A stretch of DNA of 27,599 bases. Origin: Escherichia coli (GTDB taxonomy: Bacteria; Pseudomonadota; Gammaproteobacteria; Enterobacterales; Enterobacteriaceae). The position numbers and the translations under genes were made by a program. The DNA lies in the NCBI RefSeq assembly GCF_003334405.1, contig NZ_QOWM01000029.1, one strand, 5' to 3'. The notes below the pieces were generated by a model, which worked only from the letters and a program-made list of their open reading frames with translations, ran no database searches and was not told the DNA's origin. Shown here piece after piece: positions 1,581-2,280 of this stretch; positions within the stretch are counted from its first letter, which is position 1, and every line of letters starts with the position of its first letter.

Positions 1581-2280
1581 GGATTGATGTAGATCAAGTG
1601 TATGTTTATGGTTTATTATTCTTTAAAATTTAATGAATATGTTTTTTTGTTCTATTTTTATCTGTTTTGTTTAGAATAAAATCTCGATAACTTTGTATTT
1701 TCAAGATAAAACACTTTTTTTCGAAAAAAAAGAAATTTGTTTTTTTCTTATAAATAAATATAACATGATGATGTTTGTGTTTTTTGTAAAATCAACTAAA
1801 TATCAATTGGTTATATTGATATCATCTGGTTTTTAAATGTGATTTTCTCTTGGTGGTTGGTGTCTCTAAAAATATCTTAATGAGATCAGAGGTAATAATA
1901 AGAAAGAGGGGGGGGGATATCAACAAAAATGATATTGCTTATCAAGAAAAGTAATGAAAAACCAGAAAAAAGAGAGCAGATAATACAGAAGCTAAAAAAC
2001 AAGAATACTTATGATTTATTTTCTTAATAATTATTCTTTACTTGTAGTACTCATCAGCCTCAGAAGTTTTATAGATGCAAGTTTTTATCTGCAGCAGCTG
2101 CAAAAAATATTAAATCAGTTGGGTAGGGGACAATGAATAAAGACGATTTGCTGAAATAGATGAAGCTCATGCGGGGAAATACACTTTTAAAAAGGCCCTT
2201 GTTGATGTAAATACTATTTTCTTAAATGGAGATACGCTGTATTTCATCAGATATCGGTTATTTTATAACGCAACCCTCCT
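1581..2280 (-). promoter_or_regulatory. AT-rich fimbrial operon regulatory/promoter region
   Basis: About 700 bp of very AT-rich non-coding DNA with long A and T tracts directly upstream of the PapB-like regulator. Two GATC sites (1592, 1884). No PapI-like ORF of 60 aa or more. Confidence 0.4.
1908..1916. repeat. Homopolymeric G9 tract inside the AT-rich fimbrial regulatory region
   Basis: Nine consecutive G residues (agaaagag GGGGGGGGG atatc) embedded in otherwise AT-rich sequence. Confidence 0.9.

Follow-up and report, generated by a model that had tools for sequence, protein, structure and literature searches.

Fimbrial phase variation in Escherichia coli is usually ascribed to DNA inversion (fim) or to Dam/Lrp/PapI-dependent methylation patterns (pap family). 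Slipped-strand control by homopolymers is typical of Neisseria, Haemophilus, and Bordetella and not of E. coli; in Neisseria meningitidis, promoters vary in phase through a poly-G tract (porA) and a poly-C tract (opc). The promoters of fim2, fim3, and fimX in Bordetella pertussis carry a "C-stretch" (PMC1891110), and TA repeats are located between −35 and −10 of hifA/hifB in Haemophilus influenzae (PMC9820224). PapB-family regulators without a PapI partner were described for the K99 (FanA/FanB) and Pix (PixB) operons (PMC12388093). Here, the AT-rich DNA upstream of the PapB-family regulator gene of a K88/Pef-type fimbrial operon in E. coli is described, which contains a run of nine G residues at positions 1908–1916. 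The window is the whole 27,599-bp contig QOWM01000029.1 of the draft genome GCA_003334405.1, and the analysis followed up a sequence-only reading of positions 1581–2280.

The contig is a fragment of an IncFII-type plasmid with matches to repA, parM, umuC, and tra. Its operon is headed by a PapB-family gene (PF03333 on P0001), as in Pap-type switches, and no PapI gene was found with it. The homopolymer lies in the spacer of a predicted promoter, and it may plausibly act as a slipped-strand promoter element in this PapI-less operon.

The homopolymer and the predicted distal promoter

The fimbrial genes are all located on the minus strand and the operon is transcribed from right to left, so that G9 reads as C9 in operon sense, with the flanks TTTTGTTGATAT(C)nTCTTTCTTATTATTACC. 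The run noticed by the sequence-only reading is indeed present and is the sole G or C run of at least 8 in the 27.6-kb contig. The local base composition is 17% G and 10% C, and G/C runs of at least 9 are expected from composition 7e-5 times in 1581–2200 and 0.15 times in the whole contig. The tract therefore has the length at which slippage is expected (about 8 or more) and is improbable by composition. G/C homopolymers are a rare class in E. coli, with an (A+T)/(G+C) ratio of 11.6 for runs of at least 6 (PMC8928963).

Two sites with a score of 10/12 were identified on the operon strand by a promoter scan, a proximal one (1597→1570) and a distal one (1923→1895). The distal site is the only one of at least 10/12 inside 1581–2280, and its 17-nt spacer (1917–1901) holds the entire C9 tract. 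Its predicted transcription start at about 1886–1888 falls within the conserved GATC-1884, and the distance to the first gene is about 360 nt. The placement of the tract was compared with shuffled DNA, in which C9 was kept fixed while 200 nt on either side of it were dinucleotide-shuffled (5000 trials, both strands counted). A tract-spanning site of at least 10/12 arose in 0.8% of these flank shuffles.

Relatives were gathered via the protein cluster (90% identity) to which the regulator belongs, which gave about 30 draft contigs in two clades. The window is part of clade 1, together with L002, L026/L037, L038, L039, L027/L040, and the short L028/L041. Across the complete upstream region, clade 2, the sister clade (L011–L025, L029–L031, L033–L036), is about 78% identical to clade 1. 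Regulators that are further removed, with about 71% identity, were found in L004 (E. coli) and L005–L010 (Salmonella). The tract reads C9 in the window, L002, L037, L038, and L039 (the latter in three samples) and C11 only in L027/L040 (run ERR15823777). In the C11 allele both hexamers are intact but 19 nt apart, and the pair no longer qualifies as a promoter in the scan. The length heterogeneity that the sequence-only reading had proposed to look for was thus found between isolates (C9 five times, C11 once), although the C9 copies represent one near-identical module. No additional tract alleles were found in JGI metagenome contigs searched with the flanks and a variable gap.

Homopolymers are error-prone, all data are consensus assemblies, and the difference of L002 in an A/T run could be an error. 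Nevertheless, an assembly or sequencing artefact as the source of the homopolymer or of its length variation is extremely improbable and already largely refuted, as the same C9 is present in five assemblies from different pipelines (GenBank whole-genome shotgun, NCBI third-party assemblies, Logan) and C11 lies inside an 11.4-kb contig with linked substitutions. Apart from this A/T run (A5 at 1966–1971 in L002), the independent assembly L002 and the window agree throughout the upstream region, and all indels within the clades fall in homopolymers.

Based on these data, the best explanation of the whole is tentative and somewhat short of probable: a PapI-less control region with a conserved proximal promoter and a lineage-specific distal promoter that would be tuned by the C tract. 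The DNA from 1533 to about 2200 would be the control region of a plasmid-borne chaperone-usher operon of the K88/Pef type with two predicted sigma-70-type promoters, the distal one having a spacer that consists largely of C9. Replication slippage in the C tract would change the length of this spacer, with C9 giving the optimal 17 nt and C11 giving 19 nt, at which the distal promoter would be largely inactive. In this way, the tract would form a heritable and reversible on/off or volume control of an auxiliary promoter, a device of the kind known from the fim promoters of Bordetella (PMC1891110) and from hif in Haemophilus (PMC9820224), but unusual in E. coli. Transcription from the distal promoter would pass the AT-rich DNA, which is probably silenced by H-NS, and continue into the regulator gene, where it would feed a PapB-type autoregulatory loop. 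The anatomy of the region, the promoter-like match with its low chance probability, the two tract lengths, the missing PapI gene and GATC pair, and the exchanged cassette are observed; that the distal site fires, that tract length alters its output, that slippage is frequent enough to matter, and that H-NS takes part are inferred.

Several points weigh against this explanation. The region shows no enrichment of promoter-like sites (3 found versus 6.0 ± 2.7 in shuffles), which rules out general enrichment as support and is the reason why the narrower, spacer-conditional test was run; only the latter is informative, and it was made after the distal match had been seen. Promoter-like hexamers are common in AT-rich DNA, and among the promoter-like sites only the proximal one, which lies about 320 bp downstream of the tract, is conserved across lineages. 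Clade 2 has the same operon without a long C run and without an equivalent distal site, so that the element is dispensable for the operon; the more distant relatives lack the tract as well. The five C9 copies come from one module that is essentially the same in all of them (0 substitutions in 1.2 kb), and they are therefore not five independent tests of stability. In consensus sequences, the variability of the tract does not exceed that of nearby A/T runs. The sole C11 variant is 2 nt off and is accompanied by 5 substitutions, and it may therefore be an old difference and not the result of rapid switching. A point in favor of the explanation is that changes concentrate in the regulatory region: in the comparison of L040 with L037, these 5 substitutions are located in the 700-bp upstream region and 6 in the other 10.7 kb, i.e., the upstream region has 6% of the aligned length but 5 of 11 substitutions (P = 3e-4). 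The slipped-strand idea of the sequence-only reading is thus supported in part, being favored by the tract in the 17-nt spacer of a 10/12 site and by the two alleles, and being disfavored by its invariance among the near-identical modules, its absence from the sister clade, and its distance from the conserved promoter.

Almost as likely as the tuned distal promoter is a neutral by-product of slippage, in which C9 would have expanded in unconstrained, fast-evolving, pyrimidine-rich DNA and the hexamers would lie beside it by chance, without a regulatory role. Control would then be exerted by the proximal promoter, the PapB-family autoregulator, and generic AT-rich silencing. At the tract position, clade 2 has a 12-nt-longer, pyrimidine-rich stretch reading ...CACCCTCTCTTTACCCCC..., and this segment is the least conserved part of the region between the clades (53% identity). 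The conservation of the proximal promoter everywhere, the invariant C9 in five near-identical modules, and the lack of enriched promoter-like sites fit a neutral expansion as well. What it leaves to chance is that the tract falls precisely into the 17-nt spacer of a 10/12 site, and this on the correct strand (about 0.8%), and that a G/C run of 9 stands in DNA so poor in both bases. In addition, a near-consensus promoter in horizontally acquired, AT-rich DNA is usually active if it is not silenced.

The proximal site ends 38 nt before the regulator ATG and is kept at 10/12 in the sister clade and L004 and at 9/12 in L005. It is probably the main, regulated promoter. Most of 1533–2200 lies upstream of it, so that the term "leader", which the sequence-only reading had used for the AT-rich DNA, is probably a misnomer. 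A structured 5′ leader RNA from the distal start (1888→1520) was rejected as well (z = −0.57), and the Rfam scan gave nothing relevant to a structured leader. A CRP site was also rejected, since just 3-mismatch matches were found and the contig contains fewer matches than shuffles.

The regulatory cassette and its GATC sites

The genes for the subunit and the usher share about 94% identity with fae/pef-like operons, which occur on many plasmids of E. coli and Salmonella. This similarity stops exactly at 1176, where the GC content falls from about 0.6 to 0.39. In those relatives (L001), a 99-aa PapB-family gene stands in front of the subunit gene, with a divergent 72-aa gene for a clearly PapI-like product about 500 bp away, and two GATC sites 102 bp apart are located between them. 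The regulator of the window is only 44% identical to this canonical regulator, its nearest other relatives being those at about 71%. Furthermore, neither PLSDB nor a set of 5,426 complete E. coli genomes contains a counterpart of 1177–2300, save 74–77% matches over 128 nt inside papB-like genes, and neither of the two clades is present in these collections. Judged by these comparisons, the PapB-family regulator and its upstream DNA are a rare low-GC cassette that replaces the canonical arrangement of papI, 102-bp GATC pair, and papB.

No PapI gene was detected, in agreement with the sequence-only reading. In the window, tblastn with two PapI-family proteins gave a best E-value of 0.14, far from the region, and in 1581–2335 a Pfam-A scan of six frames with stops masked matched no family at a cutoff of E ≤ 10. 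The contigs of clade 1 and clade 2 gave no PapI gene either when searched by tblastn over 10 kb on each side of the regulator, the loci searched spanning the complete operon with regulator, FaeC-like subunit, usher, chaperone, FaeF-like subunit, and three K88-type subunits. As a positive control, the PapI-like gene of L001 was recovered at E = 3e-47. A possible PapI relic on the plus strand, starting with ATGAATAAAGACGATTTGCTGAAATAG at 2133 (MNKDDLLK∗) and with a faint N-terminal likeness, was supported neither by tblastn nor by the six-frame Pfam scan; part of the conserved stretch beyond about 2210 is IS4 remnant. A downstream pefI-like gene was rejected too, since the 70-aa open reading frame after the clade 2 operon is unrelated to PapI. 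This frame (L033 17754–17966) is conserved, has no Pfam match on record, and is located on the same strand after the last K88-type subunit gene.

GATC occurs in 1581–2280 only at 1592 and 1884, i.e., at −63 and −355 from the regulator ATG, 292 bp apart, so that the two sites about 290 bp apart of the sequence-only reading were correctly counted. In clade 2, GATC is likewise present only at −355 and −63, and both sites are thus conserved between the clades. In contrast, the pairs of L001 (−256/−154) and L005 (−210/−108) are each 102 bp apart in inverted pap-type boxes, those of L005 being perfect (ttttGATCtttttt and taaaaGATCgac). No GATC pair 102–103 bp apart in inverted boxes is present upstream of the regulator promoter in the window; neither of its sites matches the pap box, and the positions of the L005 pair are mutated. 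The cassette encodes neither PapI nor the 102-bp pair and therefore cannot run a Dam/Lrp/PapI switch alone. The suggestion that control of this operon may differ from the Dam/Lrp paradigm is borne out to this extent, unlike in L001, which has both, and in L005, which has the pair. Since L005 keeps a pap-type pair, the regulatory lineage descends from Dam/Lrp-type regions or is related to them, and the version in the window has lost the defining pair.

A Dam/Lrp-type switch could still be used if PapI were supplied in trans by another fimbrial operon, with the two GATC sites as methylation targets and the C tract irrelevant. Both sites are kept between clades that are just 78% identical upstream, the distal site of clade 2 reads TCGATCTTATT and resembles the pap GATC box, and the proximal one overlaps the −35 hexamer. 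In addition, L005 keeps its perfect pair without a PapI gene nearby, and cross-talk of PapI/PapB homologues between operons was described (PMC12388093). This possibility is nevertheless quite improbable, as the spacing is 292 bp and not 102–103, neither site of the window fits the pap box, the positions of the L005 pair are mutated, and no PapI gene is present within 10 kb either side. In L005 itself (regulator ATG at 6001), the perfect 102-bp pair is present, yet no PapI-like gene was found within 6 kb either side; either PapI would act in trans there or the GATC pair would be used without PapI.

The AT-rich DNA, its boundaries and neighboring elements

The regulator gene most likely starts at 1532, and its upstream region therefore begins at 1533. 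On the outer side, about 2189–2424 resembles the end of an IS4-family element with 72–74% DNA identity to a chromosomal copy, and the C-terminus of an IS4-family transposase (residues 346–445 of 446) aligns to 2412→2221 by tblastn. The terminus of the insertion sequence lies near 2190–2210, and the fimbrial upstream region accordingly spans about 1533–2200, ~670 bp. Since the IS4 remnant occupies ~2210–2424, the outer ~70–90 bp of 1581–2280 are not fimbrial DNA. DNA which was once located further upstream of the fimbrial region is cut off by insertion sequences; this truncation is old, as the IS4 junction is common to the sister clade. Three pieces of mobile elements are stacked directly upstream (2210–3989), namely the IS4-family remnant, a Tn3-family fragment, and an intact IS110-family gene. 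The IS4-family remnant has an internal deletion of about 105 bp compared with the chromosomal copy.

The GC content is 0.279 in 1581–2280 and 0.24 in 1581–2050, whereas that of the contig is 0.496. In 200-nt windows the upstream region ranges from 0.175 to 0.31 and forms the lowest-GC stretch of the contig. The ~700 bp of AT-rich DNA assumed before is thus correct with regard to composition (GC 24–28%) and has to be shortened by the IS4 remnant at its outer end. H-NS silences AT-rich DNA, and the region stands out from its surroundings by its AT content, as H-NS-silenced regions do. One 9/10 match to the H-NS nucleation motif, TCGATAACTT, was found at 1684–1693. Silencing of the upstream region by H-NS is plausible, though only from the AT content, this single motif match, and what is known of H-NS and of pef and pap regulation (PMC12388093). 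The AT-rich DNA had also been called curved, which was not supported: AA/TT phasing of 10–11 bp does not exceed that of shuffles, 52% of which do as well, and A-tract phasing gave no sign of curvature. A 9-bp AA/TT periodicity was rejected too, since its narrow-band value of 0.2% becomes 7% after whole-band correction and it is absent in the sister clade, L004, and L005. Such a periodicity would fit the binding mode reported for PapB.

The tract is flanked by better-conserved stretches between the clades, with 77–88% identity at about 1970–2200 and 77–82% at about 1724–1874. Within the latter, the block shared with distant relatives (Table 1) is a candidate regulator-binding region. The AT-rich core (53–82% identity) is more diverged between the clades than the adjacent non-functional IS4 remnant (82–90%), which suggests a recombination patch or fast regulatory evolution. 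The T/A tract at 1715–1731 is palindromic, with the conserved upstream block on one side and the proximal promoter on the other. Clade 2 has T7/T8 and A7/A8/A9 alleles there, and in the C11 lineage T8A7 is changed to T7A8. At the consensus level it varies more than the C tract, which could be due to real slippage or to assembly noise.

The C tract could also act in cis by setting the distance or helical phase between 1917–2200 and downstream PapB-type, H-NS, or Lrp operators instead of serving as a spacer. Repeat tracts upstream of promoters in other species are a likeness for such a mode, and the conserved flanks as well as the second length-polymorphic tract at 1715–1731, between the conserved block and the proximal promoter, are consistent with it. 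However, the operator sites are only hypothetical, clade 2 differs by 12 nt so that no fixed phasing is conserved, and a phasing signal of 10–11 bp is missing, which makes this mode quite improbable.

The complete operon is present in L002 and L037–L040, where Pfam matches on the called genes follow in the order PapB, K88_fimbrial_pA, PapC_N/Usher, PapD_N, DUF5462, and three Fimbrial_K88. This corresponds to the K88 (fae)/Pef-type order of regulator, FaeC/PefA-like subunit, usher, chaperone, FaeF-like subunit, and K88-type subunits. The features of the window are listed in Table 1.

TABLE 1. Coordinates of the fimbrial genes, the predicted control elements and the adjacent mobile elements in the window.
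Feature	Position	Strand	Basis or remark
Usher gene, 5′ part (FaeD/PefC-like)	1–619	−	PF13954 PapC_N; ~94% DNA identity to faeD/pefC in plasmid records; cut by contig end
FaeC/PefA-like fimbrial subunit gene, 180 aa, first structural gene	634–1176	−	PF27684 K88_fimbrial_pA; weak NCBIfam PefA match
Hairpin in the 32-nt gap between regulator and subunit genes	1183–1208	.	Terminator scan (+ strand); minus-strand RNA −10.9 kcal/mol, z = −2.1
PapB/FocB-family regulator gene P0001, 107 aa	1209–1532	−	PF03333; NCBI annotation, ATG at 1532
Predicted proximal sigma-70-like promoter, TTGATC-N16-TATAAT	1570–1597	−	Scan score 10/12; −35 hexamer overlaps GATC 1592–1595
T7-CG-A8 on + strand (operon sense T8-CG-A7), length-polymorphic	1715–1731	.	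Alleles among near-identical isolates
Upstream block shared with distant relatives L004, L005	1724–1815	−	75% identity blocks (blastn, MAFFT alignment)
Distal GATC, kept in both clades	1884–1887	.	At predicted start point of distal promoter
Predicted distal sigma-70-like promoter, TTGATA-N17-TATTAT, C9 in spacer	1895–1923	−	Scan score 10/12, spacer 17
G9 (+ strand) = C9 (operon strand) homopolymer	1908–1916	.	Sequence
A6 run; A5 in assembly L002	1966–1971	.	Alignment
IS4-family transposase gene, decayed 3′ end	2210–2424	−	DNA and tblastn identity; edge approximate, 2190–2210
Tn3-family transposase gene, C-terminal fragment	2521–2883	+	PF01526, model positions 317–389 of 389, E = 4e-20
IS110-family transposase gene, 340 aa, intact	2967–3989	+	PF01548, PF02371

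The hairpin between the regulator and subunit genes has 11 pairs and fills the gap from the regulator stop codon to the subunit start codon. A T-rich tail follows it on the plus strand, where the scan rates it as a terminator of antisense transcription. Read in the direction of the operon, it may serve in the processing or stability of the mRNA, for which an element between papB and papA is a precedent.

The comparison of L038 with L037 over 15 kb showed no substitutions across the fimbrial genes. The identical fimbrial module is located on two plasmid backbones, which diverge upstream of an integrase gene. Since all 13 mismatches fall at this edge of backbone recombination (locus positions 5098–5345), the data suggest that the module moves between plasmids by recombination.

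Additionally, long G/C runs recur at differing places in this fimbrial operon family. In L005–L010 the FaeC-like first subunit gene has a G11 run (L005 6379–6389) among the codons of its signal peptide (…LLLVGGGGSHA…). L008 has GGTG7 at 6380–6388, which is one base shorter, and the frameshift leads to a stop at 30 codons. The run in the signal peptide is thus a candidate site of translational phase variation. Further G8 and G9 runs were found in the usher gene of L005–L010, and L001 has an in-frame G9 run (gene sense) at 5517–5525 within the FaeG-like major subunit gene (…GFGGGIS…).

Comparison with known fimbrial control systems

In its strongest form, the interpretation would be that one plasmid-borne K88/Pef-type lineage lost its Dam/Lrp/PapI switch and functionally replaced it by a poly-C promoter switch, which is rather unlikely on the present evidence. 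If true, it would be, to our knowledge, a rare or the first native mononucleotide-repeat promoter switch of an E. coli chaperone-usher pilus. A lost epigenetic switch would have been replaced by a mutational one, i.e., one type of switch by another within a single operon family, and the regulatory cassette would be swappable in front of conserved structural genes. If the tract works as proposed, its length could be read from genome surveillance data as a simple sequence marker of the state in which a plasmid-borne adhesin is expressed. If it does not work in this way, the region would be an ordinary AT-rich fimbrial promoter region that was truncated by insertion sequences and has a conserved proximal promoter.

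The operon shares with H-NS/Hha-silenced fimbrial promoters (pef, pap) an upstream region which has the lowest GC content of its contig and one 9/10 motif match. It has no A-tract phasing indicative of curvature, and H-NS binding to it is putative.

With the K99 and Pix operons it has in common a PapB-family regulator at the 5′ end of the operon without a PapI partner. Based on these operons (PMC12388093), the statement of the sequence-only reading that PapB-like regulators are normally paired with PapI is too strong. K99 differs by two tandem regulator genes, whereas just one PapB-family gene is present in the window. No report of a homopolymer in a promoter spacer was found for the K99 or Pix systems.

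Compared with the Pap-type switch (pap, sfa, daa, fae, clp, pef), the operon is likewise headed by a PapB-family gene with AT-rich upstream DNA. Its nearest structural relative L001 carries the full Pap-type switch and its regulatory relative L005 the 102-bp GATC pair. It differs from these systems in having no PapI-family gene, neither in the window nor within 10 kb in related contigs, and in having its GATC sites 292 bp apart and outside of pap-type boxes.

Finally, the homopolymer-switch systems differ from this operon, which is located on an enterobacterial plasmid, is of the K88/Pef type, and has a PapB-family regulator. The tract of the window is short (9–11) and apparently stable among close isolates, and it lies in a predicted upstream auxiliary promoter, with a conserved second promoter downstream. 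Like the tracts of Bordetella and Neisseria, it is a G/C mononucleotide run in the predicted core promoter of a fimbrial operon, in which its length sets the spacing. As in these systems, tract-length alleles are found among isolates, here C9 with 17 nt and C11 with 19 nt.

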